Positions 1 through 17,655 of a stretch of DNA of 64,000 nt are shown here, piece after piece. Each line of letters starts with the position of its first letter. Position 1 is the first letter of the stretch. A program made the translations under genes and the position numbers. Where the stretch lies: assembly GCA_016176335.1 (NCBI GenBank), contig JACOXI010000003.1, forward strand, positions 6,920 to 70,919, given 5' to 3'. The notes under the pieces are model-generated. The model saw only the letters and a list, made by a program, of their open reading frames with translations, did not search any database and was not told the DNA's origin. The stretch is from Candidatus Daviesbacteria bacterium. Its GTDB lineage: Bacteria; Patescibacteriota; Microgenomatia; Daviesbacterales; UBA10151.

Positions 1-826
1 AGGACTGTTTTTGGCAAATTTCTTTGGTGTTTTGAAACTCTCTTCCTATATTCCGGCGCTTTCCTTTCTGCCCACACAGAAGGATTTCCAAACTGTCACA
101 AAGGTCGGAGATAAAAAGATTACGGGCCGGGATTTTGATCAACAATTCAAGGCAACGCTGGGTTTGTATGCTCAAAAAGAAGCAAGCAATGACAAGTTGA
201 AAGAAAAGATTTTTAACAGTTTAGTTGAGAAAGAAATCGTCAAACTGGAAGCGGCAAAACTTGGCATTAGCGTCTCGCCGGAGGAGATCGAGAAAATATA
301 TCAGGAACGAGTTAAACAGACAGGAGGACAGGAAAAATACAATGATATTCTTAAAACCAATGGTTGGACAATTGATGAGCAAAAGGAGAAAATTCAAGAC
401 GAGCTCCTGAAAGAAAAAGTTGAGGATCAGGTGGTTGCCTGGCGGCTGGTTGAAGGAGCAAGTTTGTTCAAAGACACATCATCTTCTGACTTTGCAGTTC
501 AAAAGAAAAAAGCCCAAGACAGCCTGGAAAAGGTGCGGGCAGGTATGCTGGCAGGTAAAACACCAAAGGATGCTATAGAGGAGGCAAAAAAGGGTGGTTC
601 TGATAAGCTGATTCGCTATAATGAGCCTGTAAGGGTTATCAAAAGCGATAATTGGGACCCTGAGTTTATCCAAGCCTTTTTTGGGCTGACCAAAGGATCA
701 ATAAGTACGGTTATTAGCTCTGCCGGTGGCTCGTTTATGGTTGTTAAGATTGTTGATGCAAATGATGCTCCATACGCTTCTTACCAAGATTGGCTTGACA
801 GCGTGAAAAAAGACTACTTAAAGTAA
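1..826 (+). CDS. SurA/PrsA-like peptidyl-prolyl isomerase chaperone, 5' partial (reading frame is open to the window edge)
   Basis: The frame is open from nt 2, and the track start at 11 is a TTG. The N-terminal part resembles a SurA_N-like chaperone domain. The C-terminal part is parvulin-like ('GGSFMVVKIVDA'). The assignment rests on motifs only. Confidence 0.4.
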   Translation, partial: GLFLANFFGVLKLSSYIPALSFLPTQKDFQTVTKVGDKKITGRDFDQQFKATLGLYAQKEASNDKLKEKIFNSLVEKEIVKLEAAKLGISVSPEEIEKIYQERVKQTGGQEKYNDILKTNGWTIDEQKEKIQDELLKEKVEDQVVAWRLVEGASLFKDTSSSDFAVQKKKAQDSLEKVRAGMLAGKTPKDAIEEAKKGGSDKLIRYNEPVRVIKSDNWDPEFIQAFFGLTKGSISTVISSAGGSFMVVKIVDANDAPYASYQDWLDSVKKDYLK

Positions 827-898
827 TAAATATCTTGTATCTTGCTTTTTAACCTAATATATGGTATGAATAACTTATAGTTATTTTAGGAAGTACTT

Positions 899-1774
899 AT
901 GTTAGAGCAAGAACCAGGATTACAGACCAGAAGAGATTTTCTCATCAGGCTAGGCAGACTAGGCCTGGCAGGTGCAGGAGCAGCTCTGGCTGCCTCCATT
1001 CCCGGAAACATAGCCAGAGGAGATGGTTCTCCCACTCCCCCAAGCCCAATTCAATCAGGTCTGCTGTGTGAGGATCCGCGTTTTAAAGACAATCCAGAAG
1101 TCAAAATTAGCCATACCCATCTTTTGGGAAAGATAGTGGTCTTCCCTGATGAGCCGGAAGGGATCTTAGCAGTGGAAAAGGATGATTTTTATCATGATGG
1201 ACTGAAAAGACAGCTGGCCACAGCCCAGGGATTTTTTGAAAGGTTCATGGATATTAAGATTACTTCTGAAGTCCAGACAGATCCCAGGTATCTGATGTCT
1301 AAAATCCCTTACAGAGAATACATTGAAAGACGGTTCCAGGGTATTTCGCTAATTGATGTAGATTTGCCTAGGATCTACTATGATGGAACAACATACCCCA
1401 TATTTATTTTGATGTATATGGCTACTCCTGATCCCGGTGATAACCTGGAGTATCCCGGAACAAGAGGTTCTTACATAAGTTTTAATAATTCCAGGCGGGA
1501 CAGAGCAGGCACAGTGAGTATCCCCTGGCTTTTAGCAGAGAGATATGGACAGGCAGAACTCTTGTGGCACGAAATAGGCCATGCTTTTGGCATGGATCAT
1601 AACCCACACAATCCCAAAAGTATTATGGCTGTAGGTACAAATGTATCGCGATTGATATATGGTGTTGAGGAACCGGTTCTTGATAGCTACGATCTTGGCG
1701 GTATGTGCCCTTCATACAGGCCTTATGGCTACAAAATCCTCATACCTGCAGCTGCCAAGAACTACCAGCCTTAA
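899..1774 (+). CDS. Tat-secreted zinc metalloprotease (metzincin/matrixin-like)
   Basis: It has a twin-arginine signal ('RRDFLIRLGRLGLAGAGAALAAS'). It carries the HExxHxxGxxH zinc-binding motif ('HEIGHAFGMDH'). Confidence 0.7.
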   Translation: MLEQEPGLQTRRDFLIRLGRLGLAGAGAALAASIPGNIARGDGSPTPPSPIQSGLLCEDPRFKDNPEVKISHTHLLGKIVVFPDEPEGILAVEKDDFYHDGLKRQLATAQGFFERFMDIKITSEVQTDPRYLMSKIPYREYIERRFQGISLIDVDLPRIYYDGTTYPIFILMYMATPDPGDNLEYPGTRGSYISFNNSRRDRAGTVSIPWLLAERYGQAELLWHEIGHAFGMDHNPHNPKSIMAVGTNVSRLIYGVEEPVLDSYDLGGMCPSYRPYGYKILIPAAAKNYQP

Positions 1775-1785
1775 CTAATTAGTAT

Positions 1786-1832
1786 TTCCCGGAGGTTCAC
1801 CTTCCAGGAGTCAAAGCCCACCTGGAAGGTGG
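1786..1832 (+). terminator. Hairpin downstream of the metalloprotease gene (11-bp stem, no clear T-run)
   Basis: 'caccttccagg' pairs with 'cctggaaggtg' across a 12-nt loop. It may be a terminator or a regulatory hairpin. A TTGACA-N17-CATACT promoter-like element follows at 1842-1870. Confidence 0.3.
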
Positions 1833-1877
1833 CAGAAGTTATTGACAGATTGCTAAAAAATCTCCATACTGAGGATA

Positions 1878-3896
1878 GTGAAAAATCTGCTGCTGTTGGT
1901 GGTGACTGTGCTTTTTTTGGGTGCTACTTGGCAGTTTTCTGCCAAAGAAGCTTGTGCTGCTCTGTGGGGAGGAGGATGTAGCCCGCCTGTTGCCTCTGAT
2001 CATCAAACCTGCCCTCTTTCAGGTGTCAGAGACGGAAGATGCGTCAGCTCAGTTGATTTGGTAGCCAACATTAACAGTAGAGGCAGTATGGCTCCCAATA
2101 CCACCATTAGTTTGAGTGTTTGGGATAATGACGGGTCCACTACTACTACTTCTGCCTGCTCTGATGTGTCCTGCCTGATGAGAGCGGACAATGAGTCAAC
2201 TGTTTGGGGAGGGGGAGAAGTAAGTACTTCAATCGCTTTGGATACCATAGGATGCAGTGCAGGAGATTGTGTGGATGCCAACGGCCAAGATTTATTTACG
2301 GTTTCCTTAACTTCCAATGACACAAATTGCACTAATCCCCCCATGCAGACAGTGGATCTATACAGTAGGAACGGACAAACAGTCACCAGAGACTTTACTT
2401 TCATATGTGCAAGGCCCCCGGCTCAAACCTGTACCATTCAAGGCTACAAAGTGATAATGCCGGGCAATCAACCAATTGAACCTGCTGCTTCGCAAACAGT
2501 GACTGTCAGCGGCAAAGGGTCGAGCACTGCTAACCCGTATTCTTTCTCAGACCTCGGTGCAGGAAATTATACTATTTCCACCACCACTCCCACAGGCTAT
2601 ATTCTAAACGGCTATACTCTTTGTACCAATGCCGCCAATTGCCACAACAACACCCCCACTGCCGGAAATTCTGTGACTGCCAACTGCCCTGCAGGCGGAT
2701 ATTTGGATCTCTGGTGGCACTACAGCCCCCAAAACCAGTTTGCAACTGTGGGCGGGCGGGCTACCAACAGCAATACCGGAGCAGGGATAGCGAGCGTGCA
2801 GTTGACTGTTTATAACTCTACTACCCAAACCTACAGATATCCTTTGACCAATTCTAACGGCTATTTCACAGTTACAGACCTTGTCAGGACAGGAGATTAC
2901 TATGCAGTGAGAGCACCCTTAACCACCGGCAGCGGAGGTTTTATTCTTAGTCCGGAGGTAAGTTATGAGAACCAGCGCCAGGGTACCGGGGATTGCGGGA
3001 CAAATTGTAACTTTACCTATAGGCCGGTCTCTGTAGGGGTGGACCTGAAGGCAAATGGATCAGATACTACAGTCAATATTGCCAGCGGAGAAACAGCCAC
3101 ACTGTCTTGGACTACCACCAATGCTTCCTCCTGCACAGCCTCAAGCTCGCCTTCAGACTCTACCTGGAGCGGTACCAAAACAACCGCAAACACCGCCGGA
3201 CAGAGAACCAGCGCTCTGACAGGTCCCAATACCTACACCTACACTCTGCGTTGCAGCAATGCCAGCGGCACTGTCTCCGCCCAAGACTCGGTATCGGTTA
3301 ACGTGGCCGCACCAGTTGCCTGTAACACTTTTTATGTCAGTCCCACTGCCGCAAGCTTAACCATCGGCGGCTCTTCCATGGGAGTTTTTGCCAATGGTCG
3401 TGACGGCACTGTCAGTTGGTCAACTGCCAACTCCTCAATTGCCCGAGTCAGCCCAACCAGCGGCAGCAGCACCCAAATCTCCCCCGGCACCACTTCTGGC
3501 ACCACCACCATCACTGCCACTGACGCAGGCACGGCCAGTTGCAGCGGAGAAACAGGCACTATCTCGGTAACGGTCTCCGCCCCTCTAAGCGGGGCACCTG
3601 TTAACCAACCCATACCGAGTGCTGCTCCAGGCGTAACCACCTATATAATAGAGGGTGTGGTTTTCCTTGACAGCAATAGAAATAGAATCAGAGATGCCAT
3701 AGAGGTCTGTTACCAGGGCCCTGTGCGTATTTCTTTGGGGACTACTTCTATCAATCACCTCCAGGATAGAGATTGCACCAATAAGTACAGGTTTTCCGGG
3801 ATACCTGTAGGGACTTACTCTCTTATTATGGATCCTGTAAATGATTGGGAGTCAACAATGTTGCCGCCGTGGACAGTAATATTTACAGTACCTTAA
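1878..3896 (+). CDS. Secreted Thr/Ser/Gly-rich cell-surface protein with a bacterial Ig-like (Big_2-like) segment
   Basis: The N-terminus is hydrophobic and signal-like. The composition is very Thr/Ser/Asn-rich. A Big_2-like stretch is present ('VSPTSGSSTQISPGTTSGTTTITATDAGTASCSGETGTISVTV'). The exact start is uncertain because the GTG at 1878 sits too close to the 'gaggat' SD-like motif. Confidence 0.5.
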   Translation: MKNLLLLVVTVLFLGATWQFSAKEACAALWGGGCSPPVASDHQTCPLSGVRDGRCVSSVDLVANINSRGSMAPNTTISLSVWDNDGSTTTTSACSDVSCLMRADNESTVWGGGEVSTSIALDTIGCSAGDCVDANGQDLFTVSLTSNDTNCTNPPMQTVDLYSRNGQTVTRDFTFICARPPAQTCTIQGYKVIMPGNQPIEPAASQTVTVSGKGSSTANPYSFSDLGAGNYTISTTTPTGYILNGYTLCTNAANCHNNTPTAGNSVTANCPAGGYLDLWWHYSPQNQFATVGGRATNSNTGAGIASVQLTVYNSTTQTYRYPLTNSNGYFTVTDLVRTGDYYAVRAPLTTGSGGFILSPEVSYENQRQGTGDCGTNCNFTYRPVSVGVDLKANGSDTTVNIASGETATLSWTTTNASSCTASSSPSDSTWSGTKTTANTAGQRTSALTGPNTYTYTLRCSNASGTVSAQDSVSVNVAAPVACNTFYVSPTAASLTIGGSSMGVFANGRDGTVSWSTANSSIARVSPTSGSSTQISPGTTSGTTTITATDAGTASCSGETGTISVTVSAPLSGAPVNQPIPSAAPGVTTYIIEGVVFLDSNRNRIRDAIEVCYQGPVRISLGTTSINHLQDRDCTNKYRFSGIPVGTYSLIMDPVNDWESTMLPPWTVIFTVP

Positions 3897-3899
3897 GAT

Positions 3900-4145
3900 A
3901 TGAAAAAGAAAAAAAGCCAACGCAGGCTACATCCTCTATTTTTGATATTATTTTTTTTGGTAATGGGTCTTTTGCTGCTAATCTTTTTACGAAGAAGTTT
4001 TGTAACAGAGAAGGAGCAGCAAAAGGTCATAGATATCTCTTTACCGATCATTCCCAAAACAGTTGAGTCTGCTCCAGCAAGCGCCAGTAGCGTCCAAGCC
4101 CCTAAGGCAGTGCCGGTTGAACAATCTTTCGGGAGGGAGTTTTAA
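3900..4145 (+). CDS. Small membrane-anchored protein (single N-terminal TM)
   Basis: The sequence is a 'KKKKSQRR' segment followed by a hydrophobic helix. It lies inside the secreted-protein cluster. Confidence 0.3.
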   Translation: MKKKKSQRRLHPLFLILFFLVMGLLLLIFLRRSFVTEKEQQKVIDISLPIIPKTVESAPASASSVQAPKAVPVEQSFGREF

Positions 4146-4148
4146 GAT

Positions 4149-4604
4149 ATGCGGAAAATAACACCATTTTTAAAGGAAAATCTGTTTCTTTTAGTGGTGA
4201 TTTCGGTACTGGTAGCTTTGAGTACAATTTTTATTATTTGGAACAAGACTGTCTTTTTCTCCACCAAAACCGTGACGCCACCTCAAATTCCTCTGGCAAA
4301 CCCACCAATCCAAACACAAAGCCAGCTGCCTTTGACACCTCTACCACCAGCAGCGGAGGCCAACAAGACAGAAGTTTTTTTGGAAAAAGTGCGTGAGGCT
4401 ATATCTGCAGTTGTATTTAGAGGATTGGGAAAGAGTGTTGAGCCAACCCCTACCCCAGGGGTAAGTTCGCAAGGCAGTCCTACGGCAAATGAAGCAGGAA
4501 GCGTTCCCCTGGGCACAAAACCCTCCCAAGACAGTGTAGATACAGCTTCTACAGCAACTGAACCTAAGAGTGCATTTTCACCAAAGCCTGTGAGAATACC
4601 ATGA
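4149..4604 (+). CDS. Membrane-anchored Pro-rich protein
   Basis: It has an N-terminal TM helix followed by a Pro/Thr/Gln-rich extended region. It is translationally coupled to the downstream gene by an ATGA overlap. Confidence 0.3.
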   Translation: MRKITPFLKENLFLLVVISVLVALSTIFIIWNKTVFFSTKTVTPPQIPLANPPIQTQSQLPLTPLPPAAEANKTEVFLEKVREAISAVVFRGLGKSVEPTPTPGVSSQGSPTANEAGSVPLGTKPSQDSVDTASTATEPKSAFSPKPVRIP

Positions 4605-5902
4605 TGATTTCCAAAAAGTTTCTTCCACTATCACTGGCAATTTTCTTTATTTTGTTCCTGTTTGCTTTATTCGCTTTTCCAAAAAGCAGTCCAGCTTATG
4701 CTGCTGCCCAGTGTGACCCATCTTTTGAGAAAAGCTGTGCCGGCGGTTGTATAGGAGCAAATGATATTTGCTGCGGCAGTGGTTATTGCACATTAGGGAA
4801 TCAGTGCGCCACTATTAACGGCAGGGCAGGTTGTATTCCTACCGGTTCGTCTGTCTGCGGCAACGGTTATTGTGAGCAGGGTTTAAACTGTGTCAGCACT
4901 ACCGCCGGATATCGCTGTGTGGAACCAGGCAGACAGCAATGCGGCAGCGGAAACTATTTTTGTTATGCAGGTAACACTTGTGTTAATGCCAGCATACCTC
5001 TTTGTTGTGGAAGTGGTCAGGTTCAATGCGGAACCGGTTGTGTACCGTCAGGGGTAAGCTGTTGTAATTTGCCTGGGACAAGTTACTATTGCCCTACCCC
5101 AGGTGATGTCTGCACAAATACCAATAATACTGTTGCCGGACTTTCTTGCATACCGCCAGGTTGGACTTCTTGCGGAGGAGGTTATGCTTGCCCGCTTAAC
5201 ACCTCTTGCAGTGGAAGTGGAAACACTGCTACTTGCTACGGATCTTTGGTTTTTCCTGTGCCCGGCAATGGTGAGATGCTTGACCAGCGGCAAGTTGTGT
5301 TTGATGCTGTGTTTGCGGAATCAGCGGACAGCCGTGCTACTGGCCAGACTTTTACACCCGCAGTTACCGGTTATCTAAAAAGAATAGTATTTGCTGTATG
5401 GGACATAAGCGGAAATCCTTCTGGTTTAGGGATACAAATAGTTAAAATCCAAGGTAGCTCATGGATAGGAACAGCAGAGGTGATTTCCAGGGAAATAGTA
5501 AAGAATGTAAGTCAATACAGCTTTGTTCAAGCAGAGTTTGCTGAAGGAGAGAGGCCGTTTTTACAGGCCGGAGGTTATTATGCAGTGGTAATCCGCAGTA
5601 CAGGAGGCAGTGGTTATTACAACTTAGCTATGTACGGCCCACATGCTTCTTCCCAGGGATATACCCGCGGAGACCTTTGTGGGTTTAATCTTAGTGGCAG
5701 CACTCCGACCCAAATTGCGCCTAGCTCTTGCTACGTTGGCGAGTATTTCCAGGTCCGTGATTTGGCCTTTTCAACTTATATGCTCCCTTCAAGAGAAACT
5801 GACTTAGGAGTCGCACCGCCTCCTGCTTTAGACCCCTGGATTCAGACCACCGGCGGGGATGTTCATTCCAATACCGGAATAAATACCCCGGGAGGACCAT
5901 GA
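4601..5902 (+). CDS. Secreted cysteine-rich repeat protein (novel CGxGxxC repeat modules plus a C-terminal globular domain)
   Basis: It has a signal peptide. About 170 aa then carry repeated 'CGSG..C..G..C(V/A)' modules with more than 40 Cys. I recognise no known family. Confidence 0.45.
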   Translation: MMISKKFLPLSLAIFFILFLFALFAFPKSSPAYAAAQCDPSFEKSCAGGCIGANDICCGSGYCTLGNQCATINGRAGCIPTGSSVCGNGYCEQGLNCVSTTAGYRCVEPGRQQCGSGNYFCYAGNTCVNASIPLCCGSGQVQCGTGCVPSGVSCCNLPGTSYYCPTPGDVCTNTNNTVAGLSCIPPGWTSCGGGYACPLNTSCSGSGNTATCYGSLVFPVPGNGEMLDQRQVVFDAVFAESADSRATGQTFTPAVTGYLKRIVFAVWDISGNPSGLGIQIVKIQGSSWIGTAEVISREIVKNVSQYSFVQAEFAEGERPFLQAGGYYAVVIRSTGGSGYYNLAMYGPHASSQGYTRGDLCGFNLSGSTPTQIAPSSCYVGEYFQVRDLAFSTYMLPSRETDLGVAPPPALDPWIQTTGGDVHSNTGINTPGGP

Positions 5903-6705
5903 GAGAATTTAGAATTAAGGTTTTTTTAAATTGCTTTTTATTAGCTTTATTCTTGATTCTTGTCGCTTTATTCTACCATCCTACTTTTGCCCAAACCTCA
6001 ACATGTGGTGGTGGAACCGGGGACCGGGCCACTGGGCTGGTCTCTACTCCCCAACTTATGTCTGGTTCTAAATTTGGTACCACAACAGGAGCTTGTATAA
6101 TTGACCCCAAAACAGCTTTTGTCCCCTTTAAAATCCCAAGCTATGAAGATTTAAAATCACTTTATTATACCCAATCCAAAGCTACTAAAATAGATGCTAC
6201 ACCTGCCTCTGGTACGGCTAATCAAGGTACCATCAGATCTGCTTTGAACAGTTCTGATATCATACTGATCAGAGGAGATCTGAACCTCAACGGTAACTTG
6301 GGAGGAAGCCCAAAAACCGCTGTCATTTTGGTTGAAGGTAACCTGAATTTTGGAGGTAGCAATTTTACATTCGGTGATAACAACACGGGTGTTGTCTTTG
6401 TAGTAAGCGGTAATGTTAATATTGACCCAACGGTTACTCAAATAGATGCAATTATTATTGCCGGCGGAATAATTTGTACAGCTTCTGGCGGTTCTGTTTG
6501 TCCAACTGCTAATGTCCCGAACTCACAACCACTTGTGATTAATGGCAGCTTAATATCTTTAAATGAGTTAGCCTCTATTAAATTCAGGCGTTCGCTCGCT
6601 GATAATAGACGGCCAGCTGAAAAAATCAATCATCAAATCAAATATCTGGTAATTTTAAGAGATCTTTTGTCCGATACTTATCAAAAATGGTCAGAAATAC
6701 CCTAA
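5899..6705 (+). CDS. Secreted hypothetical protein with beta-strand repeat (GNLN/GNVN) segment
   Basis: It has a signal peptide. It carries repeats 'GDLNLNGNLGG...VEGNLNFGGSNFTFGDNNTGVVFVVSGNVNIDP' suggestive of a beta-helix or solenoid. Confidence 0.35.
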   Translation: MREFRIKVFLNCFLLALFLILVALFYHPTFAQTSTCGGGTGDRATGLVSTPQLMSGSKFGTTTGACIIDPKTAFVPFKIPSYEDLKSLYYTQSKATKIDATPASGTANQGTIRSALNSSDIILIRGDLNLNGNLGGSPKTAVILVEGNLNFGGSNFTFGDNNTGVVFVVSGNVNIDPTVTQIDAIIIAGGIICTASGGSVCPTANVPNSQPLVINGSLISLNELASIKFRRSLADNRRPAEKINHQIKYLVILRDLLSDTYQKWSEIP

Positions 6706-6739
6706 AGAGTCATCAGCTATCAGACGTCAGTCGTCAGAC

Positions 6740-7129
6740 ATGAATACACATAAATTTAGAAAACTGAAAGTTTGGCAAAGATCAATTCAATTTGTAACTT
6801 TAATCTATAAAATTACTACTAAGTTTCCGAAAGAAGAAAAATATGGACTAGTAGATCAAATAAGAAGGGCTGCTGTGAGTATTTGTCTAAATATTGCCGA
6901 AGGCTCGGGATCAGGCTCTGATGCAGAATTTGTTAGGTTCTTAAGAATAGCACAGCGATCAGCTTATGAAGTAATTGCTGCATTAGAAATTACAATTAAT
7001 CTTAAAATGACGAACAAATCGGCATTAGATGGTGCTATAGTGGAGGTAGACCAGTTAAGCGCCATGCTTACTGGACTTATTAAAAGTCTGAAAGCTGACA
7101 GGTCCGATGTTAAATCGGACCGATACTGA
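6740..7129 (+). CDS. Four-helix-bundle protein (TIGR02436, '23S rRNA intervening sequence protein' family)
   Basis: 'KLKVWQRSIQFVTLIYKITTKFPKEEKYGLVDQIRRAAVSICLNIAEGSG...' is characteristic of this family. The ORF is flanked by inverted GTCAGTCGTCAG motifs. Confidence 0.75.
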   Translation: MNTHKFRKLKVWQRSIQFVTLIYKITTKFPKEEKYGLVDQIRRAAVSICLNIAEGSGSGSDAEFVRFLRIAQRSAYEVIAALEITINLKMTNKSALDGAIVEVDQLSAMLTGLIKSLKADRSDVKSDRY

Positions 7130-7145
7130 CGACTGAAGACTATTT

Positions 7146-8111
7146 ATGAAAAAAGGCTTCACCCTAATAGAGCTGCTTGTTGCTGTTTCGATTTTAGCAA
7201 TACTATCCACTATTGGTATTACTGCCTTCCAGGGAACTCAATCCAAGGCAAGAGATACTGTCAGAAAAAATGACCTGAATGTCCTGGCCACAGCTTTGGA
7301 GATATATCGTGAGCAAAATGGAAAATATATTGTTAACAGTGACGGAACAAATATTACCACCTGCCCTTCCTCATCTGACACCACTTCTCCATTTTATACA
7401 CAAATTGCAGCTAATTTATCCACCCCTGCCCCAAAAGACCCTAAAACAGGATCTTTCTACTGTTACATTTCAGTTAGCAATGGTCAATCCTTCAGGCTTT
7501 TTGCCGGGCTGGAAAATTGTAGTGGTTCAGGCGGTAATTTATGTGAATATACTAACTACAACTATACTGTTATTTCAGAAGATATAAGCTTAGCTTCTGC
7601 CCCGTCAGATTCGCTGATTGCAAGCGCACCAACTCCTACTCCTTCCCCTTCCCCAACTCCCACAGCCACAACTTCTCCCTCTCCTTCAGCCTCTCCCACA
7701 GCTTCCCCTTCCCCTTCCCCAACTCCTACTCCTACAGCTACCTATACCTATATTCAAACCAACGTGGGTTGTAGTACTCCTTTGGGTTTGACTCCTGACC
7801 AACTCTGCCAAAGAGAGGTTTCTTCTACCTCTCGCTCCCAAGCAGTGCCTGGCAGCAGTACCATAATGGCCAAGGGTTACTGGTGGCAAGAATGCGGCGG
7901 GGCTTCGGTAAGTGACTGTGTAGGGCTGGATTGCACAGTCAATCAGCTTGATTGTACCAATACTCCAGGGTTTTGGGGTACACAAATACCTTATCCCTCT
8001 CATTACCTAAAAACAGGTAATAACATCACAGTCTTTGATCCTGATTCTCTTGGTTGGAGTTGCGATGGTTTTAGTCCCGGTTGGACTATGAGGGTGTATT
8101 GCTCCCGTTAA
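7146..8111 (+). CDS. Type IV pilin-like protein (prepilin N-terminal methylation motif) with PT-rich linker and Cys-rich C-terminal domain
   Basis: 'MKKGFTLIELLVAVSILAILSTIGITAFQG' is a class III signal with a conserved Glu5. A long (P/T/S)n linker follows, then a C-terminal domain with about 9 Cys. Confidence 0.75.
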   Translation: MKKGFTLIELLVAVSILAILSTIGITAFQGTQSKARDTVRKNDLNVLATALEIYREQNGKYIVNSDGTNITTCPSSSDTTSPFYTQIAANLSTPAPKDPKTGSFYCYISVSNGQSFRLFAGLENCSGSGGNLCEYTNYNYTVISEDISLASAPSDSLIASAPTPTPSPSPTPTATTSPSPSASPTASPSPSPTPTPTATYTYIQTNVGCSTPLGLTPDQLCQREVSSTSRSQAVPGSSTIMAKGYWWQECGGASVSDCVGLDCTVNQLDCTNTPGFWGTQIPYPSHYLKTGNNITVFDPDSLGWSCDGFSPGWTMRVYCSR

Positions 8112-8136
8112 AGCTATTGATACTGAAGACTGACAA

Positions 8137-8847
8137 CTATTTCCCAAAATTGCGCTTTTGATTCTGATACCAAACAACGGCCTTTTTAAATTCATTCTCA
8201 TCAAAATCCGGCCATAGGGTTTTGGTAAAATAAAACTCGCTGTAGGCTGTTTGCCAAAGTAAAAAATTGGAAAGTCTACTTCTGCCTCCGGTTCTAATCA
8301 AAAGCTCCGGATCTCTCTGTCCATTGGTATATAAATGCCTTTCCACTATCTCCTCATTAATCTTTTTAACTTCAATCCCCTTTTTAACAATCTCTTTGAT
8401 AGCGGAAAGCAGTTCTTTTTTACCTCCATAATTTAAAGCTATATTTAATTTGATGGACTCATTTTTAAGATATGCCTTTCTAATTCTATCGATAATTTTT
8501 ATAATAGTTTGGGGCAAGCCTTGCACCTCACCTAAAATTGTCACCCTGACTCCTTTTTTTATCATCTTCTTTAATCTGCTGTGATAACCTTTTCGGAATA
8601 GATTGAACAATCCCAGTACCTCTCTTTTGGCCCTTTCCTTAATATTCTCTGTTGATAGCGCATAAACTGTAATGGTTTTAACTCCTAATTTTTCTGATTC
8701 ATCAACAATTTTTTCCAACACTTCTGCTCCTTTCTCATGACCTTTCATGTCAGACAGACCCTTGGATCTGGCCCACCGTCTGTTACCATCCATGATTATT
8801 GCTATGTGACTTGGTATGTTTTTAGTACTTAAGTTTTTTTTATCCAT
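8137..8847 (-). CDS. uppS: Undecaprenyl diphosphate synthase (isoprenyl transferase)
   Basis: 'IAIIMDGNRRWA' is the UPP synthase hallmark. The length fits. Confidence 0.9.
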   Translation of the reverse strand: MDKKNLSTKNIPSHIAIIMDGNRRWARSKGLSDMKGHEKGAEVLEKIVDESEKLGVKTITVYALSTENIKERAKREVLGLFNLFRKGYHSRLKKMIKKGVRVTILGEVQGLPQTIIKIIDRIRKAYLKNESIKLNIALNYGGKKELLSAIKEIVKKGIEVKKINEEIVERHLYTNGQRDPELLIRTGGRSRLSNFLLWQTAYSEFYFTKTLWPDFDENEFKKAVVWYQNQKRNFGK

Positions 8848-8921
8848 GTTTCAAATAGATTTATGATTTATGAGATATGAGTTATGATTAAATTCATAAA
8901 TCTTAAATCATTGTTCATAAA

Positions 8922-9830
8922 TCACTTTTCCCTTTCCACCATATATTGCACCATTTCCGAAAATAACTTTCTCATTTTGGCATCAGAAGTAATCTTTGGT
9001 ATTACTCTTTTTGCTCTAAAAGCATATTTTAACGCTTTGGCCTCTGCCTTGTCCACTGATTCTACTTCCCCATCCAAAATATCATCTCTAATCTGAAAAG
9101 CAATCCCTGCATTCTCCCCGAATTCTTTTATCCCGCGAAGCCTTGGCGAAGTGGGACCTGCTCCTGCCAGAATTGCTCCGAGTTTAAGAGGGCCTGAAAT
9201 AGTATATCTGGCTGTTTTAAGTTTAGCTGTAAGCTTCGGGTCAGCATGGGCAACATCAAGCATTTGTCCTATGGCAGTATCCAGCATTGTTTGGGAAAAA
9301 AATCTTAAGGCCTGGTTTTTTAATTTATCTTCAAAGTTGCTTTCAGTAATAATTTTTATTGCCAGAAAAAAGCCTGCATCTGCCAAAGTGATGGCCTGCT
9401 CCACTCCTACGCGCTTATACAAGGAGGGCTGACCACGTCTTTTGGGACTTTGATCAATTATGTCGTCATGGGCCAAAATGGCAGCATGAAATATCTCATA
9501 AGCTGCAGCAATTTTAATAATAGAGCTTTCAGCTGTCAGTATCGCTTCGCCCGCCTTTGGCGTGGCTTCGCTGTCAGCTTTCAGACTTTTTTTGTCTTTG
9601 TCTGATTGCTGATAGCTGATAGCTGATGACTCTTTTGCAATCTCATATCCCAACACCACCAAAGTTCCCCTGATTCTCTTGCCTCCCTTGCAGGCTTTGA
9701 TGAATTTGTCAACCAAAGGCAATAGACTTCCGGAAGTCTTGCCAACCCCATTCCTCCATTCTTTTAACAATCTCTTTAACTCTTTATCAATGTGTTCAAC
9801 TGTTTTTTGACTAAATATCTTAAAATCCAT
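8922..9830 (-). CDS. Polyprenyl (geranylgeranyl/farnesyl) diphosphate synthase; carries an in-frame repeat insertion
   Basis: The first Asp-rich motif is 'AHDDIIDQSPKRRG'. A ~95-bp repeat-derived insert encodes 'SYQQSDKDKKSLKADSEATPKAGEA'. Confidence 0.85.
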   Translation of the reverse strand: MDFKIFSQKTVEHIDKELKRLLKEWRNGVGKTSGSLLPLVDKFIKACKGGKRIRGTLVVLGYEIAKESSAISYQQSDKDKKSLKADSEATPKAGEAILTAESSIIKIAAAYEIFHAAILAHDDIIDQSPKRRGQPSLYKRVGVEQAITLADAGFFLAIKIITESNFEDKLKNQALRFFSQTMLDTAIGQMLDVAHADPKLTAKLKTARYTISGPLKLGAILAGAGPTSPRLRGIKEFGENAGIAFQIRDDILDGEVESVDKAEAKALKYAFRAKRVIPKITSDAKMRKLFSEMVQYMVEREK

Positions 9831-9856
9831 TGCCTAAATTTACCATATCCTTGGAT

Positions 9857-10788
9857 CTAGTGCACTTTTTTAGTAGAATTTCTTGACTCGATAACTCTTT
9901 TTGCCATAGGGATAATAATGCTTTTCCTCATCAAAACACCATCTCTACAAGAAATGTTATTTTCGAATTTAATACCCAGTGTTTGTGTAAGTAGTGTCTT
10001 AGAGGGTTCATCCACTACAACAAAAGTGTTTTTTATTTTTTCTGTATCAATAAGTGAGAGGAAAATCAAATCTAAGTTTTTTTCTTTTTTTATTTTAGTA
10101 AGTACTTTTTGTATTTCTTCTTTGTTTTTATTGACAAAATCATCAGTATTAACAATTTCTAATTGTGCAATTCCTAACTGTTTAGAACGAAATTCGAAAG
10201 TTGCAAAGTCATCACAGAATACTTCTTTTAAGGGTTTTTTAAATACTGACTTTGCCACAAACATTTTATGGACATAGTTTTCAGGTGAATCAAATTGTTT
10301 TACCAACCAATCATACATTTTCTTGTCCCTATCTGTAGTTACATTCGCTTGGAAATTAACGGTATTTGAGATGATCGCTGAGTAAAGCAGGGCTGCGGAG
10401 GAAGAAGTTATAATTATTTTTTCTTTAAAGAATTTTTCAGCAATTAAGGTTGCACAGGACCCAACCAATTCAATCTGTATTTTTGCATTAGGAAATTTAT
10501 CTGCTTGATTACTTGCTTTGGGTCAATTAAGTTTGAGATACCGCGTAAATCACTTGCATCCACAAGGATTAACCTGTCTTTCTGATTGAGAATGTTTTCT
10601 GCTTGAGCAGGTTTATCAATATCAAAGGTTTTAAAGACAAATTGTGCCTCACTGTGAGGTGTACCAAAAAGCGCAGCAATTGCATTCTTACCTTTTTTTT
10701 TAAGTAACTCTGCATATGCTATCGCAGAGGCAGTACCATCCAAGTCAGGATTGGAATAACCAGTAACAATAATACGTGATTGAGACAT
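9857..10788 (-). pseudogene. DHH-family phosphoesterase (family II inorganic pyrophosphatase-like), frameshifted and lacking the DHH motif
   Basis: Two overlapping ORFs (10444..10788 and 9857..10468, the second from a TTG) match the PpaC N- and C-parts ('YSNPDLDGTASAIAYAELL...ILVDASD', then 'GSCATLIAEKF'). The motifs are DHN->DAS and DHH->KQI. Confidence 0.45.
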
Positions 10789-10913
10789 AAGTTTTTAACA
10801 ACAATATGAGCATCTGGGAGAAGTTATTAATAACCTCGTTCCTGGAGACCTCCTTGCTTTTTCAAAAACAATTTCTTCTGAACCAACCCTCATTTGCCTA
10901 GTAACAATTTCAA

Positions 10914-11354
10914 TCATCCTTCCTCTGTAGGCAATAACTTCATCTCCAATTGGTACTGGAATAGTACTTCCCTGCATATGTTCTTCTGCTTCTTGCCTTG
11001 ACATGTGTCAAATATATAATAAGTATGTTGATAGAACCTTGGATCGAGAGATTCTGTGTAGTCTGTTCTTTGCGGTAACTCTTTTTGCCCAATCCAGAAG
11101 ATACCGCACAAGTTACCATTTTCATCTACCCTATCCGTAAGAGCATAAATAGTCCGACCTTTTTGTCTCCAGATCTCATACTTCTCCGGTGACATAAAAC
11201 GACCTTCATCACCATCCAGGTTAATAGGGTCTTTTTCAATTTGAGTGAATATGATAAGTTGGTTTACCTGATGTAGAGTTATACCGAAATGGATATAAAA
11301 AGATTCTTGCGTCTGCTCTGCAATAACTTCTTTAAGAACTTCATGCGTATTCAT
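10914..11354 (-). CDS. Hypothetical protein
   Basis: The ORF is 146 aa with no recognisable motifs. A 69-aa ORF (10795..11004) overlaps its 3' end in another frame, so it may be frameshifted. Confidence 0.3.
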   Translation of the reverse strand: MNTHEVLKEVIAEQTQESFYIHFGITLHQVNQLIIFTQIEKDPINLDGDEGRFMSPEKYEIWRQKGRTIYALTDRVDENGNLCGIFWIGQKELPQRTDYTESLDPRFYQHTYYIFDTCQGKKQKNICREVLFQYQLEMKLLPTEEG

Positions 11355-11401
11355 TATAGAGTATTATACTACTTGGTTTCTAGCCCTGTTATAATCACAG
11401 T

Positions 11402-12022
11402 ATGATAAAAGCTGTATTTTTCGATATCAATGACACTTTAACTAATCACTCTCGCGCACAAGAAGTCGCCATTAAGAAAATGGCCGTCTTTTTATCTAAA
11501 CATGATGAAACAGAATTTATCAAAGTTTGGAAAGAGACAGCCAAAAAATATTGGGAGCTTTTTGAGAAAAGGAAAATAACCTTTGAGGAGCAGCGCCTAC
11601 AGAGAGTAGAGTCCGTCTGGAATCATTTTAAAGCTAAATTGACACCTGAGCAGATTAACCAATATGCCAATTATTATGTTAGTTATTATGAGCAAGTATT
11701 AAGTATAAACCCCACTCTTAAAGTTTTTCTTGAATTATTACAAACAAACCACATTCCAGCGGGTATTATATCCAATGGACATGGACACATACAAAGGAGG
11801 AGATTAAAAGTTATCGGAATTGAGCCACACTTGACTAACAGGCTGGTCTTTATTTCTGAGGAGATTGGCATTGCTAAACCGGATGAAAAAATATTCATAC
11901 AAGCAGAAAAAGCTGTTGGTGTTTCCTCTTCAGATATCCTTTTCTTTGGAGATGACCTTAAAAACGATATTGAACCAGCTAAAAAAAGAGGTTGGAGAAC
12001 TGTACTGATAACACCTCCGTAG
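11402..12022 (+). CDS. HAD-superfamily hydrolase (subfamily IA)
   Basis: 'FFDINDTL' is the DxDxT motif I. The C-terminal 'FFGDDLKNDIEPAKKRG' is motif IV. Confidence 0.75.
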   Translation: MIKAVFFDINDTLTNHSRAQEVAIKKMAVFLSKHDETEFIKVWKETAKKYWELFEKRKITFEEQRLQRVESVWNHFKAKLTPEQINQYANYYVSYYEQVLSINPTLKVFLELLQTNHIPAGIISNGHGHIQRRRLKVIGIEPHLTNRLVFISEEIGIAKPDEKIFIQAEKAVGVSSSDILFFGDDLKNDIEPAKKRGWRTVLITPP

Positions 12023-12063
12023 TTTGCTTCTTGTGGATGCTTTTTGATGTGACGAGCCGATTA

Positions 12064-13233
12064 ATGGTAGAATTGCCTTTCATGAAAAGCAAACTTTCTC
12101 TTCGCGACTTTCCTTCCGCTCAAAAAAGACGCCAGTTTTTAGAAAAAGAGTTAAAACTAGACTTGGACAGTCTTGGTAGTTTCACTTTTTCAGAGGAAGA
12201 AGTCACCGGTAGAAATATAGAAAATCTAATTGGAGCAACACATATTCCTTTGGGTATCGCTGGTCCACTCAAAATCATAAATCATAAATCATCAATCATA
12301 AATCACTTTATACCATTGGCCACTACCGAAGGAGCATTGGTAGCTTCTTTATCCCGCGGCTGCAAGGCCATCACAGAAAGTGGCGGGACAGAAGTTTTGG
12401 TGGAAAATATCGGTATCACCCGCGGCCCGGTATTTAGGACTGAAAGCTTGCAGCATGGACAACAAATCAAAAAGTGGGTGGAGCAAAACTTCACCAAGTT
12501 GGCCAAGGTATCAAAAAGTACTTCTTCCCATCTGAAATTACTGAAAGTAGAACCAGCCATGGTGGGACGTAATTTGTGGCTTCGTTTCTATTTTGATACT
12601 GAAGATGCCATGGGCATGAATATGGCAACAATTGCCACAGATGAGGCAGTGAAACTAATTGAAAAGGAAACAAAAGCTAAGTGTATATCTTTGGCAGGAA
12701 ATTATGACATTGACAAAAAGCCCTCTTGGCTGAATTTCATTTCCGGGCGGGGTAAAAAGGTCTGGGCAGAAGCTGTCTTACCCAAAAAAGTGGTCAGGGA
12801 AGTGCTTAAAACTACGCCGGAAAAGATGGCCGAGGTAGTCTATAGAAAATGCTTGCTGGGTTCAGCAGTCAGCGGTTCATTGGGCTTTAATGCTCATTTT
12901 GCCAATATACTCTCCGCCATCTTTCTGGCCACCGGCCAAGATCCCGCTCATGTGGTGGAAGGCAGTTTGGGAGTGACCACTGCCGAGGTTATGCCCAATG
13001 GCAACTTATATTTCTCCGTCTATCTGCCATCTTTGGTGGTGGGAGTAGTTGGCGGAGGAACACATCTGCCTACCCAAAAAAAAGCCTTAGAAATTATGCA
13101 GGTGAACAATGTGCTAGAATATACTCGGGCTGTGGGAGCAGCTGTTATTTCTGGTGAAATTTCATTAATTGCCTCTCTTTCGGAAGGAAGTTTGGCAAAA
13201 GCACACCGGAAACTGGGTAGAAAAGGAAAATAG
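12064..13233 (+). CDS. hmgA: Hydroxymethylglutaryl-CoA reductase (class I, archaeal/eukaryotic type)
   Basis: 'ENLIGATHIPLGIAGPLKI...TTEGALVASLSRGCKAI' matches. The track ORF starts at 11992 inside the upstream gene, and an in-frame ATG at 12064 is the more likely start. It contains an in-frame 'atcataa' tandem repeat that encodes 'IINHKSSIINH'. Confidence 0.85.
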   Translation: MVELPFMKSKLSLRDFPSAQKRRQFLEKELKLDLDSLGSFTFSEEEVTGRNIENLIGATHIPLGIAGPLKIINHKSSIINHFIPLATTEGALVASLSRGCKAITESGGTEVLVENIGITRGPVFRTESLQHGQQIKKWVEQNFTKLAKVSKSTSSHLKLLKVEPAMVGRNLWLRFYFDTEDAMGMNMATIATDEAVKLIEKETKAKCISLAGNYDIDKKPSWLNFISGRGKKVWAEAVLPKKVVREVLKTTPEKMAEVVYRKCLLGSAVSGSLGFNAHFANILSAIFLATGQDPAHVVEGSLGVTTAEVMPNGNLYFSVYLPSLVVGVVGGGTHLPTQKKALEIMQVNNVLEYTRAVGAAVISGEISLIASLSEGSLAKAHRKLGRKGK

Positions 13234-13383
13234 GAGCGAAGTCACAAGTAATCAAAAAATGTAGTGCAGTTGAGCGCACCACTTATTCAATGTTTCGAAA
13301 CCAGAATCTGGCGCGAAACAAACACCAAGTGAGCGATCCGGTCGCGCGAACGGTTTTTTGTACTGTGACGAGCGACAAACATT
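13234..13383 (+). repeat. ~145-bp dispersed repeat element, copy 1 (fills the hmgA / HMG-CoA synthase intergenic region)
   Basis: It is near-identical to 26611..26759 and 57806..57960. It shares 'agcgaagtca...caaaaaatgt.gtgcagttgagc...ggcgcgaaac...gcgagcgacctggtcgcgcgagcggttttttg...tgacgagc'. Confidence 0.8.
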
Positions 13384-14427: not shown

Positions 14428-14538
14428 AGGAATGTAGAATTCAGAGTTTAGAGTTCAGAATGGTGTAGAATTTAGAATTCTTAAATTGATTATAAATTCT
14501 AAATTTAATTCTGAATTATGAATTCTTAATTATAAATT

Positions 14539-15672: not shown

Positions 15673-15773
15673 AACTCAAATGTCAAAACTCAAAACTACA
15701 ACTATAATCTCAAAAGTTTTAAGATTTAAGATGCAGATTTGCAATTTGAGATCTAAGATTTGAGATAAATATT

Positions 15774-16094
15774 ATGAATAGTAGTCCTGTACAAATTTGG
15801 AGAAAACATAAAAATTTACATAATTACCTGGGTAAAACAGGTAGGCTTTTGGTTTGGACTAAGATCTTTGTGGCCCCAACCGGTTTTGAGCACCAAACCC
15901 CCTATATTGTAGGCATTGTACAATTTGAAGACCCTTCGACAAGTTCAGGGCAAGTTAGATTGCCTGCGCAAGTTGTAGATTGTCCTGAAGAATCCCTAAA
16001 AGTAAACCAAAAGGTACAAGTAGTGATCCGAAAAATAGGTAAAGCAAAAGCTGAAGATGTTATTGAATATGGAATAAAGGTAAAACCTTTATGA
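15774..16094 (+). CDS. DUF35 OB-fold/Zn-ribbon protein (partner of archaeal thiolase/HMGCS complex)
   Basis: It is a small protein immediately downstream of the thiolase. That is the conserved archaeal arrangement. Confidence 0.65.
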   Translation: MNSSPVQIWRKHKNLHNYLGKTGRLLVWTKIFVAPTGFEHQTPYIVGIVQFEDPSTSSGQVRLPAQVVDCPEESLKVNQKVQVVIRKIGKAKAEDVIEYGIKVKPL

Positions 16095-17499: not shown

Positions 17500-17655
17500 C
17501 TCTGGAAATTCACTCCTTTGACCCCTTCTAACTTCTCCCCTAAGTTGTCTAATATTTCTCTTTCGGTAAATTTCGTCATATTGTAAGAATTCTAAACGTT
17601 AGTCATGCCAAAATCAAGCATAGCTTTCCTAATTTAGGTAATATATAATCCAGCC

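Follow-up and report, generated by a model that had tools for sequence, protein, structure and literature searches.

The gene at positions 4601..5902 (forward strand) of the window, that is, of the whole 64,000-nt stretch of DNA that was analysed, encodes a cysteine-rich protein of 433 aa that ends in a conserved tail of about 21 aa, PWIQTTGGDVHSNTGINTPGGP. As judged by sequence comparison, this tail is a previously undescribed tag common to many otherwise unrelated secreted proteins. The tag usually lies just upstream of genes for a beta-solenoid protein, here called Sol, and a type IV pilin, and this order points to a plug-in system in which surface-binding heads could be exchanged. We propose that the 433-aa protein is a putative exchangeable binding head and that its tail docks it to Sol within a surface assembly linked to the pilin, a model whose chances we put at about even. 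The protein would be one head of a polymorphic set, its relatives bearing different bodies on the same tail, and the tail, unstructured alone, would be the docking tag for the product of the next gene, Sol. The two genes would be translationally coupled, with the ribosome binding site and start codon of Sol lying within the last tail codons, and in consequence head and Sol would be expected in matched amounts. The head-Sol pair would then belong to a pilin-associated surface assembly for binding to another cell or to a surface, most likely by way of a glycan ligand there.

A modular protein of cysteine repeats and a beta-sandwich

The ATG-started ORF overlaps the stop codon of the upstream gene (CCATGA) and its product is identical to the NCBI hypothetical protein HYS96_00140 of Candidatus Daviesbacteria, so that the original prediction was right in supposing a CPR bacterium. 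An ortholog in another locus (L016:3021-4298) shares 73% identity with the protein and keeps all 30 of its 30 cysteines. Between the two genes dN/dS is 0.21 at a dS of 0.81, and about 0.2 in the Cys-rich and in the Cys-poor region alike. The identical database entry, the ortholog and the low dN/dS agree with the original reading of 4601..5902 as a real gene, one that is under purifying selection.

From N- to C-terminus the protein consists of a Sec signal peptide, seven 4-Cys modules, a beta-sandwich, a Pro-rich linker and the C-terminal tail. The layout had been anticipated for the most part (signal peptide, Cys modules, then a Cys-poor part, which is of about 220 aa), whereas the cysteines number 30 and not more than 40. 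The signal peptide predicted from the sequence covers residues 1-34 (4601..4702, forward strand) and has a hydrophobic core followed by AYA↓AAQC, with cleavage after AYA; the AF2 model places a helix over residues 8-24. The same type of cleavage site, (V/A)YA↓(A/Q)xC, is found in the L016 ortholog and in the database protein P0002. Neither the 433-aa protein nor Sol matches N_methyl or TIGR02532 in Pfam and NCBIfam, and both carry Sec-type signal peptides with AxA-like sites, not those of type IV pilins or pseudopilins. The protein is a modular extracellular protein exported by Sec, its secretion being predicted from these features. According to the original prediction, the case for a novel secreted protein would fall if the model was disordered and no relatives could be found. 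Because the AF2 model is of moderate confidence (mean pLDDT 70, with confident hairpins and sandwich and a disordered tail) and relatives exist, although they are few, the case stands.

The Cys-rich region (residues 38-212; 4712..5236, forward strand) is built of seven 4-Cys modules with 28 Cys in total, and CG[SNG]G opens five of these modules. The 28 cysteines in 175 aa amount to 16%, where the median ORF of the window has 0.68%, and no other ORF of the window is as rich in Cys. The CG.G motif occurs 6 times where 0.87 would be expected, a number attained in 2 of 20000 shuffles, and the longer module CG.G-x(1-3)-C-x(3-5)-C, with an expectation of 0.135, is present in 5 copies, which none of 20000 shuffles attained; the repeats noticed originally are thereby confirmed, with a parse into seven modules. 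AF2 models the region as beta-hairpins, with pLDDT 71-93 over residues 56-130 and 60-84 over residues 145-212. The Cys total is even (28 + 2) and, as modelled, the seven hairpin modules presumably form a stalk with 14 disulfides. The repeat had been described as belonging to no recognised family, and sequence searches of Pfam, NCBIfam, PHROGs and PDB indeed returned none. The protein and six others with related repeats match no Pfam or NCBIfam family (EGF, granulin, furin-like and others) at E<=1, and structure searches gave no match attributable to this region. It is matched weakly by other proteins from metagenomes that carry 4-Cys repeats of 26-28 aa in tandem.

The Cys-poor domain (residues about 237-396; 5309..5788, forward strand), whose presence was correctly noted but which had been treated as unknown, is in the predicted structure a beta-sandwich remotely related to DUF4082 (Pfam PF13313). 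Its fold is a jelly-roll or CBM-like sandwich, and its Foldseek matches in PDB include the baseplate of phi812 and the central fibre of Douge at E 9e-5. Profile-level similarity to PF13313-bearing proteins reaches E of about 1e-7, 22 of 48 aligned relatives match PF13313 at E<=0.1, and two of them (P0189 and P0190, 30.5 and 30.3 bits) exceed its gathering threshold of 28.4 bits. The protein itself stays below that threshold and has no PF13313 match in Pfam even at E<=1; its kinship with DUF4082 lies in profile-level homology and in the matching sandwich. The domain family shares with DUF4082 the (A/G)QTFTP...G.L motif region, the protein belonging to a divergent branch, and DUF4082 has no assigned function. 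Sandwiches like it serve for binding in phage baseplates and fibres and likewise in carbohydrate-binding modules.

Could the protein then be a prophage-derived or phage-like receptor-binding protein? The resemblance to baseplate and central-fibre modules raises this reading, and one member of the domain family, P0143, matches large PHROGs families. Against it, the locus occupies a conserved chromosomal position in many MAGs, between a SurA/PrsA-like gene and uppS with mevalonate genes, no phage genes lie nearby, neither the protein nor Sol has PHROGs matches, and a search of 2.9 million viral contigs found no tail. We regard a phage origin as largely refuted already and very improbable.

The C-terminal tail and its junction with the Sol gene

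The tail occupies residues 412-433 (5834..5899, forward strand), after the Pro-rich linker APPPALD; both the tail and its coupling to the solenoid gene had been overlooked in the original prediction, which was incomplete in this respect. Although the scan pattern did not demand a C-terminal position, the tail forms the exact C-terminus in 20 of 20 database proteins and in 30 of 30 metagenome loci. Altogether, about 50 proteins bear it, all with N-terminal signal peptides and with very diverse, unrelated bodies (PA14, Ig-like, FN3-like, Cys-rich). In isolation it has a pLDDT below 50 in AF2. We found no paper containing the tail motif string and none combining Patescibacteria, cysteine-rich and pili.

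Is it the peptide or the nucleic acid that is conserved? Tail codons differ synonymously between loci, and therefore selection acts on the tail peptide itself; a DNA or RNA element was rejected for most of the tail, where third codon positions differ freely from one locus to another. The last five codons, which contain the Shine-Dalgarno sequence and the ATGA overlap, are nearly constant at the DNA level, and dS against the L016 ortholog is 0.25 in the tail, a value from 25 codons only, compared with 0.81 for the gene. Constraint at the nucleotide level is thus likely in part.

In the window, a Shine-Dalgarno-like GGAGGA (5891-5896, forward strand) lies inside the Gly-Gly codons of the tail, and the start codon of Sol (ATG, 5899-5901, forward strand) overlaps the TGA stop of the tail gene (ATGA). 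The same arrangement is present in five other genome loci (L001, L009, L012, L013 and L014) and in many metagenome loci, and some relatives have gaps or TAA-N-ATG junctions between the two genes. A programmed -1 frameshift at CCA-UGA, fusing head and Sol, was rejected on three grounds: there is no slippery heptamer, Sol has its own signal peptide, and relatives have the gapped or TAA-N-ATG junctions. Downstream of the tail gene comes a Sol homolog in the window as well as in L001, L003, L005, L008, L009 and L012-L016. Among 30 metagenome loci selected by the tail, 16 have Sol downstream and 3 more have a downstream ORF that is homologous to a known Sol-fusion protein and runs off the flank, whereas 11 lack Sol within 3 kb on either strand; conversely, of the 8 genome loci that were selected by Sol and show their upstream region, 3 lack a tail gene. 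An obligatory adjacency of tail and Sol is therefore not upheld, as it holds in only 16-19 of the 30 tail-selected metagenome loci. In P0002, a Cys-rich head 46-57% identical to that of the window is fused to a Sol domain, and this fusion has neither the tail nor the Sol signal peptide.

The tail might instead direct sorting or processing, recognised by some enzyme or secretion step that, for example, attaches the protein to the cell wall or S-layer or cleaves it. Such a signal would act independently of Sol, their adjacency reflecting only a shared surface-protein operon. Its strictly C-terminal position is that of known sorting signals, the combination of N-terminal signal peptides and diverse bodies is that of sortase and exosortase substrates, and the 11 tail genes without a neighbouring Sol fit such a role. 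Unlike LPXTG, PEP-CTERM, GlyGly-CTERM and PGF-CTERM signals, however, the tail has no hydrophobic helix with a basic cluster, the protein ending 21 residues past a Trp, at PGGP, without any hydrophobic stretch. With 21 aa the tail is too short for a T9SS CTD, no sorting-domain model of NCBIfam or Pfam matches it, the loci have no conserved candidate processing enzyme, and the tail-less P0002 fusion suits docking better. On balance, we consider a sorting signal unlikely.

Sol, the pilin and the gene neighbourhood

Sol, the proposed docking partner and adaptor, is a secreted beta-solenoid protein of 268 aa (5899..6705, forward strand). Its structure was predicted with database homologs, and the predicted fold is a triangular right-handed beta-solenoid with an accompanying helix, as in ice-binding (DUF3494) proteins. 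By sequence, Sol has no Pfam match at E<=10, whether or not the tail is placed in front of it, its 58-sequence profile matches no PDB sequence, and neither tail nor Sol matches DUF3494 or another family. The tail may resemble the first rung of ice-binding proteins; a sequence link of Sol or of tail plus Sol to DUF3494 was tried and dropped, there being no match even with a chimeric tail+Sol query. Some Sol homologs bear CBM_4_9 or DUF1554 extensions. Residues 32-74 form a conserved mature N-terminal segment that is not modelled alone. The tail could co-fold with the N-terminal segment of Sol, adding a rung or strand, or could even bond to it covalently and spontaneously.

Upstream of the Cys-rich protein lie genes for an Ig-like secreted protein of 672 aa with SdrD_B, Big_2 and SpaA-type matches (1878-3896), a transmembrane protein of 81 aa (3900-4145) and a Pro-rich transmembrane protein of 151 aa (4149-4604), all on the forward strand. 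The genes in 1878..4604 are separated by 3 nt or overlap, and their order is kept in L016 and L015 and partly in L002. Downstream of Sol come a gene (6740-7129) for a four-helix-bundle "23S rRNA intervening sequence protein" and one (7146..8111, forward strand) for a modular type IV pilin of 321 aa with a prepilin motif, a PT linker and a Cys-rich C-terminal module. The last is a pilin by its matches to PF07963 N_methyl (E 1.6e-7) and TIGR02532. The cluster at 1878-8111 had been described as nine co-oriented genes; it has seven. The Ig-like protein, the two small, N-terminally anchored Pro-rich proteins, the solenoid and the pilin were described correctly, whereas the product of 6740-7129 is of cytoplasmic type and not a surface protein.

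This four-helix-bundle gene, being Avd-like, raises the question of whether the locus is the target of a diversity-generating retroelement. The gene matches bAvd and DivGenRetAVD weakly (E 4.5e-4 and 4.6e-5), but 23S_rRNA_IVP/TIGR02436 far better (1e-36), and it is missing from the equivalent position in most relatives. No template/variable repeat pair longer than 45 nt was found in 1-20000, the ORFs scanned include no reverse transcriptase, and the dN/dS of the Cys-rich and Cys-poor regions is ordinary. The retroelement reading was rejected as scarcely credible.

How close is the link with the pilin? The gene order next to the pilin is kept in relatives, as the co-occurrence check suggested at the outset required. 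The start of the homologous pilin gene overlaps the end of Sol in L002, L004, L006, L007 and L008, and on this ground the head-Sol pair is probably pilin-associated; pilin-like ORFs also lie downstream of Sol in L014, L031, L035, L041 and L045. A different view is that the protein and Sol form a surface, S-layer-associated or free glycan-binding complex unrelated to pili, with the pilin merely a conserved neighbour. Sol has no pilin domain or prepilin leader, in five Sol loci (L003, L009, L011, L012 and L013) the interval from Sol to uppS contains no pilin, a scan of ORFs in the window turned up no genes of a type IV pilus machinery, and ice-binding-type solenoids are widespread as stand-alone secreted proteins. 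Set against this are the overlaps and the downstream pilin-like ORFs just described, together with the fact that ComZ, the only solved solenoid from a pilus locus, is of the same fold class. A complex unrelated to pili seems to us improbable.

A bolder form of the docking model takes the tail as a universal docking tag and Sol as an adaptor riding on the modular pilin in Daviesbacteria and related CPR, with interchangeable heads (Cys-rich/DUF4082-like, PA14, Ig-like) encoded beside and away from Sol. We advance this generalisation tentatively, as somewhat less probable than not being the case. Attachment to a host is made plausible only by the DUF4082-like, PA14 and CBM_4_9 modules predicted at equivalent positions in relatives.

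Significance and comparison with known systems

The lifestyle of CPR/Patescibacteria is believed to be one of attachment to other cells, and the molecules by which partners are recognised are known only for a few cultivated Saccharibacteria. The locus offers a concrete, testable module of head, tag, solenoid and pilin. With the tail as a simple sequence handle, metagenomes can be searched to catalogue which exchangeable surface-binding proteins Daviesbacteria possess, and binding within the putative tail-Sol peptide-protein pair is open to tests in vitro that need no culture of the organism. Docking, if confirmed, would be a new way of diversifying binding by a pilus-associated structure, a cohesin-dockerin-like principle on a pilus-associated adhesin, and the tag-adaptor pair might serve as a protein-engineering tool; otherwise there remains a secreted Cys-rich protein, restricted to its lineage and equipped with a DUF4082-like domain, of modest interest.

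Among known systems, LPXTG/sortase, PEP-CTERM/exosortase and the T9SS CTD resemble the tail in that a conserved motif stands strictly at the C-terminus of secreted proteins of many kinds. They differ from it in that the tail has no transmembrane helix, basic tail or beta-sandwich CTD and matches none of their models. PilY1 and PilC are non-pilin pilus adhesins, and PilC of Streptococcus sanguinis is a modular pilin. The PilB of S. sanguinis is likewise a modular pilin (bioRxiv 10.1101/2021.01.27.428410). The likeness to PilY1/PilC and PilB lies in the variable binding modules at a type IV pilin locus, where the 321-aa pilin is itself modular by its extra C-terminal module. In contrast to these adhesins, the 433-aa protein would be attached through a short tail to a non-pilin adaptor; it is not a pilin, and it shares no domain with PilY1 (no beta-propeller).

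ComZ-PilA2, at the tip of the Thermus thermophilus competence pilus (PDB 6qvi), offers the comparison for Sol, since ComZ and Sol are of the same solenoid fold class. ComZ is itself one of the pilins: it has a prepilin leader, its solenoid forms an insertion in a GspK-like pilin domain, and it binds DNA (PMC6561018). Sol has a Sec signal peptide, no prepilin leader or pilin domain and no sequence similarity to ComZ, and cannot polymerise as proposed for ComZ; whereas ComZ itself binds DNA, the putative binding modules of the present system are separate heads. Cohesin and dockerin resemble the proposed arrangement in its logic. The tail, of only 21 aa, has no Dockerin match and lacks the duplicated Ca-binding loop-helix of Dockerin_1 (about 70 aa), and in place of a cohesin sandwich its proposed partner has a beta-solenoid fold. 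What the two have in common is a set of unrelated bodies that carry one short, conserved C-terminal module after a Pro/Thr-rich linker, with a scaffold-type partner encoded nearby.

A secreted protein with a Cys-rich stalk

The ORF at 4601..5902 (+) of the window starts with ATG and encodes 433 aa identical to NCBI 'hypothetical protein HYS96_00140 [Candidatus Daviesbacteria bacterium]'; the genome is therefore a CPR/Microgenomates MAG, as originally guessed. The N-terminus (MMISKKF, a hydrophobic core and the cleavage-like site AYA|AAQC) is a typical predicted Sec signal peptide, so the leader claimed for this protein stands. This is a real gene under purifying selection: against a full-length ortholog on a Logan contig (L016:3021-4298; 73% identity, 30/30 Cys kept), dN/dS is 0.21 at dS 0.81, and the Cys-rich and Cys-poor halves are alike in dN/dS.

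The protein has a repeated 4-Cys stalk. It contains 30 Cys and not the more than 40 of the original prediction; 28 of them lie in residues 38-212 (16%), and with 6.9% Cys, against a median of 0.68%, this is the most Cys-rich ORF of the window. The repeat exceeds what composition alone explains, with six CG.G motifs versus 0.87 expected (a count reached in 2/20000 shuffles) and five CG.G-x(1-3)-C-x(3-5)-C modules versus 0.135 expected (0/20000 shuffles). The predicted repetition is thus upheld, while its 'about six' CGSG-type units become seven 4-Cys modules, each of 19-36 residues.

How rare is such a stalk? A word-indexed search of 5.8 billion proteins returned the protein itself and one partial relative only. 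At E<=1e-3, 16 of 1.84 billion cluster representatives matched in an exhaustive HMMER search, and they form four groups: a fragment of the L016 ortholog resulting from a gene miscall (P0004); P0006, of 490 aa and 31% identical over residues 117-433; P0002, whose first ~190 residues are a Cys-rich head 46-57% identical to ours; and weak matches (E 1e-11 to 2e-4) to proteins of unknown origin carrying tandem 26-28-residue 4-Cys repeats, roughly C-G-x-G-x-C-x2-G-x2-C-x6-8-C-x-P-x-G, for which there is no Pfam family. P0006 is the sole other protein with the same architecture, and its gene order is also the same (Ig-like protein, small Pro-rich protein, head, solenoid). Because of the weak matches elsewhere, we regard the repeat as an uncurated module not restricted to this lineage. 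Neither the structure searches nor a PDB sequence search gave any match for the stalk, in keeping with the unrecognised family noted at the outset. Taken alone, the protein is a lineage-restricted hypothetical.

Structure prediction and the search for relatives, both proposed originally, yielded a moderate AF2 model (48-sequence alignment, mean pLDDT 70, pTM 0.46) and existing relatives. Stacked beta-hairpins are modelled at residues 56-130 (pLDDT 71-93) and 145-212 (60-84) and a beta-sandwich at 237-396 (62-91), with disorder at 214-233 and 400-433 (both <50). Foldseek with this model returned the phi812 baseplate and the Douge central fibre (E 9e-5, probability 1.0), in agreement with the beta-sandwich reading. 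A profile of the Cys-poor domain pulls in a large family with the motif W.AQTFTPSV...L, which takes in PF13313 (DUF4082) proteins (E ~1e-7). DUF4082 is matched by 22/48 aligned relatives but not by the protein itself, and we therefore call the sandwich DUF4082-like and not a Pfam member. In domain terms, the protein combines a divergent DUF4082-like sandwich with the uncurated Cys repeat.

A strictly C-terminal tail conserved at the peptide level

The original prediction overlooked the tail at 5834..5899 (+). The last 22 residues, PWIQTTGGDVHSNTGINTPGGP, recur near-unchanged at the C-terminus of proteins whose unrelated bodies have nothing else in common with ours. Protein searches identified 20 tail-bearing proteins, with a Trp 18-22 residues from the end in 20/20; the single 18-residue tail is the one without the terminal GGP. 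A metagenome contig scan, using a pattern that did not demand a C-terminal position, added 30 loci, and in 30/30 the stop codon came 21-25 residues past the Trp. Every complete tail-bearing protein begins with a signal peptide, and a Pro-rich linker usually stands just before the tail; the bodies include PA14 (1e-30), Ig-like, FN3-like repeats, a CarboxypepD_reg-like domain and other Cys-rich arrays.

Third codon positions of the tail vary freely between loci, so selection acts on the peptide itself. Over 25 tail codons (5834-5899, window against L016), dS is 0.25 versus 0.81 in the rest of the gene, a small sample that hints at extra nucleotide-level constraint from the ribosome-binding site or coupling, beyond peptide selection. 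The tail was not found in 2.9 million viral contigs, nor its motif string in the literature searched.

Coupling to Sol and linkage to pilins

The final tail codons are CCG GGA GGA CCA TGA. They hold the Shine-Dalgarno sequence GGAGGA (5891-5896), and the next gene opens with an ATG (5899) that shares bases with the stop; most related loci are arranged likewise. The head gene is translationally coupled in this way to a solenoid gene of ice-binding-protein/ComZ-like fold, Sol (5899..6705 (+), 268 aa). All 177 homologs of Sol are unnamed and lack Pfam domains. Throughout the family the protein starts with a Sec signal peptide that ends in (T/P)x(F/Y)A|Q. The AF2 model (58 sequences) has pLDDT 80, exceeding 90 over the beta-solenoid (residues ~80-250), and a helix comes after it at the C-terminus; segment 32-74, at the mature N-terminus, is strongly conserved and unmodelled (pLDDT ~40). 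Sol is itself modular: some homologs are extended at the C-terminus by CBM_4_9 or DUF1554, others at the N-terminus by 700-1100 aa of Cys-rich sequence.

Two irregularities of Sol genes were also observed. At L014:7239-9870, Sol is split between a 93-aa ORF (signal peptide and N-terminal segment) and a 790-aa ORF (remaining solenoid within a larger protein), which could reflect rearrangement, insertion or misassembly. In the signal-peptide regions of P0019, P0043, P0046 and the L003 and L012 junctions, the peptides TNYKLPTAYA, FTIYNLQFTIF and VTGNRLQ recur and coincide with short repetitive DNA, e.g. GGTTACAGGTTATAGGTTACAGG, directly past the stop codon of the tail gene, as though the junction housed a small repeat element.

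Does the tail always accompany Sol? Among tail-selected look-ups (P0003, P0224, P0235, P0006), Sol is next in 4/4. For tail-selected metagenome loci, a Sol HMM match lies downstream on the same strand in 16/30; in 3/30 more, the ORF downstream resembles the 1379-aa Sol-fusion protein found in L012, as a homolog, and extends beyond the 3-kb flank, and in the other 11/30 neither strand carries a Sol within 3 kb. Conversely, a tail gene is found in 5/8 Sol-selected genome loci with a visible upstream region. The association is strong, not obligatory. One adaptor serving several heads would be expected to give such a pattern, which is equally compatible with a Sol-independent role of the tail. A sorting or processing signal would be such a role, and we consider it unlikely: sortase, exosortase and T9SS hallmarks are absent from the tail, no sorting-signal or other model matched it, and it has no hydrophobic or basic segment. 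A natural head-Sol fusion also exists. P0002, encoded between a Pro-rich gene and a pilin, joins its Cys-rich head to an Ig-like domain and a Sol domain; neither the DUF4082-like domain nor the tail nor the signal peptide of Sol is present. On the Rosetta-stone argument, head and Sol act together, and the tail can be dispensed with once they are covalently joined.

Region 1878-8111 holds seven co-oriented ORFs, not the nine proposed, with gaps of 3 nt or overlaps of 4 nt. Nor are all of them surface proteins, since 6740-7129 encodes a four-helix-bundle '23S rRNA intervening sequence protein' (PF05635, 1e-36). The remaining neighbours are as first described: a 672-aa Ig-like protein (SdrD_B, Big_2 and SpaA-type matches), two small, N-terminally anchored Pro-rich proteins, secreted Sol and a 321-aa pilin (N_methyl motif, PT linker, Cys-rich module). 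Prophage and DGR readings, of the head gene and the cluster respectively, were rejected.

The suggested co-occurrence in related genomes was borne out, the order in related MAGs being tail-bearing secreted protein, Sol, type IV pilin and convergent uppS. Linkage to modular pilins is conserved: the pilin gene begins before Sol has ended in L002, L004, L006, L007 and L008, and pilin-like ORFs follow Sol in L014, L031, L035, L041 and L045. Because of this direct overlap in relatives, 6740-7129, which separates Sol from the pilin in the window, looks like an insertion. That head and Sol form a complex without any connection to pili seems improbable given this linkage, even though Sol itself is no pilin, having neither prepilin leader nor pilin domain; a pilus location for the pair is nonetheless quite doubtful.

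Further observations concern these surroundings. The space ahead of the four-helix-bundle gene is occupied by a 37-nt inverted-repeat arm (6704-6740), whose partner (9599-9635, 84% complementary) lies inside the polyprenyl synthase gene; in L008 and L010, homologs of the 23S_rRNA_IVP-type gene are placed elsewhere or on the opposite strand. L004 and L006 are separate Sol-pilin loci of one MAG (CAYSNN01), so the module can be multi-copy. Post-Sol pilins (window 7146-8111; L014:9874-13242; L007:1052-2308) have conserved N-terminal halves and different C-terminal modules (Cys-rich, DUF1554 and, by eye, a LamG-looking end, respectively), making the pilin also a variable-head protein. Upstream, 11-826 (+) encodes a SurA_N/Rotamase_2 (PrsA-like parvulin) foldase, possibly an extracytoplasmic folding helper for disulfide-rich proteins; a homolog (L005:2492-3454) directly precedes a tail-bearing gene. 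Directly before the cluster, and kept there in L016 (71% identity), 899-1774 (+) encodes a 291-aa protein with a twin-arginine-like leader (RRDFLIRLGRLGLAGAGA), a metzincin-type HEIGHAFGMDH motif and sub-threshold Pfam peptidase matches only (E 0.006-0.2), which could be a protease that processes cluster proteins. Downstream, uppS, which adjoins the cluster in nearly all related loci, and polyprenyl synthase accompany a complete-looking mevalonate pathway (8137-19625: HMG-CoA reductase, HMG-CoA synthase-like, thiolase, two GHMP kinases, diphosphomevalonate decarboxylase). A DHH-family phosphoesterase (9857-10788 (-)) is seemingly split into overlapping ORFs, 10444-10788 (-) (N-terminal part, by eye) and 9857-10468 (-) (DHHA2, E 7.6e-13), which could be a frameshift, pseudogene or assembly error. 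Farther away, 29425-31158 (-) encodes an ATP-dependent DNA ligase of archaeal/eukaryotic type and 32327-33403 (-) a protein with a Fic/DOC domain.

A possible binding device and its analogues

We read the protein as a modular binder, associated with the surface or with pili, whose putative pairing of tag and adaptor has not been described before. We propose that it belongs to a set of interchangeable binding heads whose tail, disordered alone, would dock on Sol, perhaps by co-folding with the conserved N-terminal segment of Sol. GGDVHSNTGIN of the tail resembles the Sol rungs G(D/N)(L/V)x(I/L), which makes it reasonable to picture the tail as an extra rung or strand. Head, Sol and the neighbouring modular pilin would together form a surface-binding device, and the DUF4082-like, PA14 and CBM_4_9 modules at equivalent positions point to glycans as putative ligands. 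We hold the anatomy of the protein with high confidence, and the proposal as a whole has about an even chance of being right. The tail-solenoid-pilin module offers a concrete, cheaply testable hypothesis on how an uncultivated CPR lineage diversifies binding.

Among known systems, the tail shares no defining feature with sortase, exosortase or T9SS signals. Cohesin-dockerin pairs are alike in that many bodies carry one short C-terminal module after a Pro-rich linker, but the tail has no dockerin feature. The closest functional analogue of Sol is the ComZ/PilA2 tip complex.
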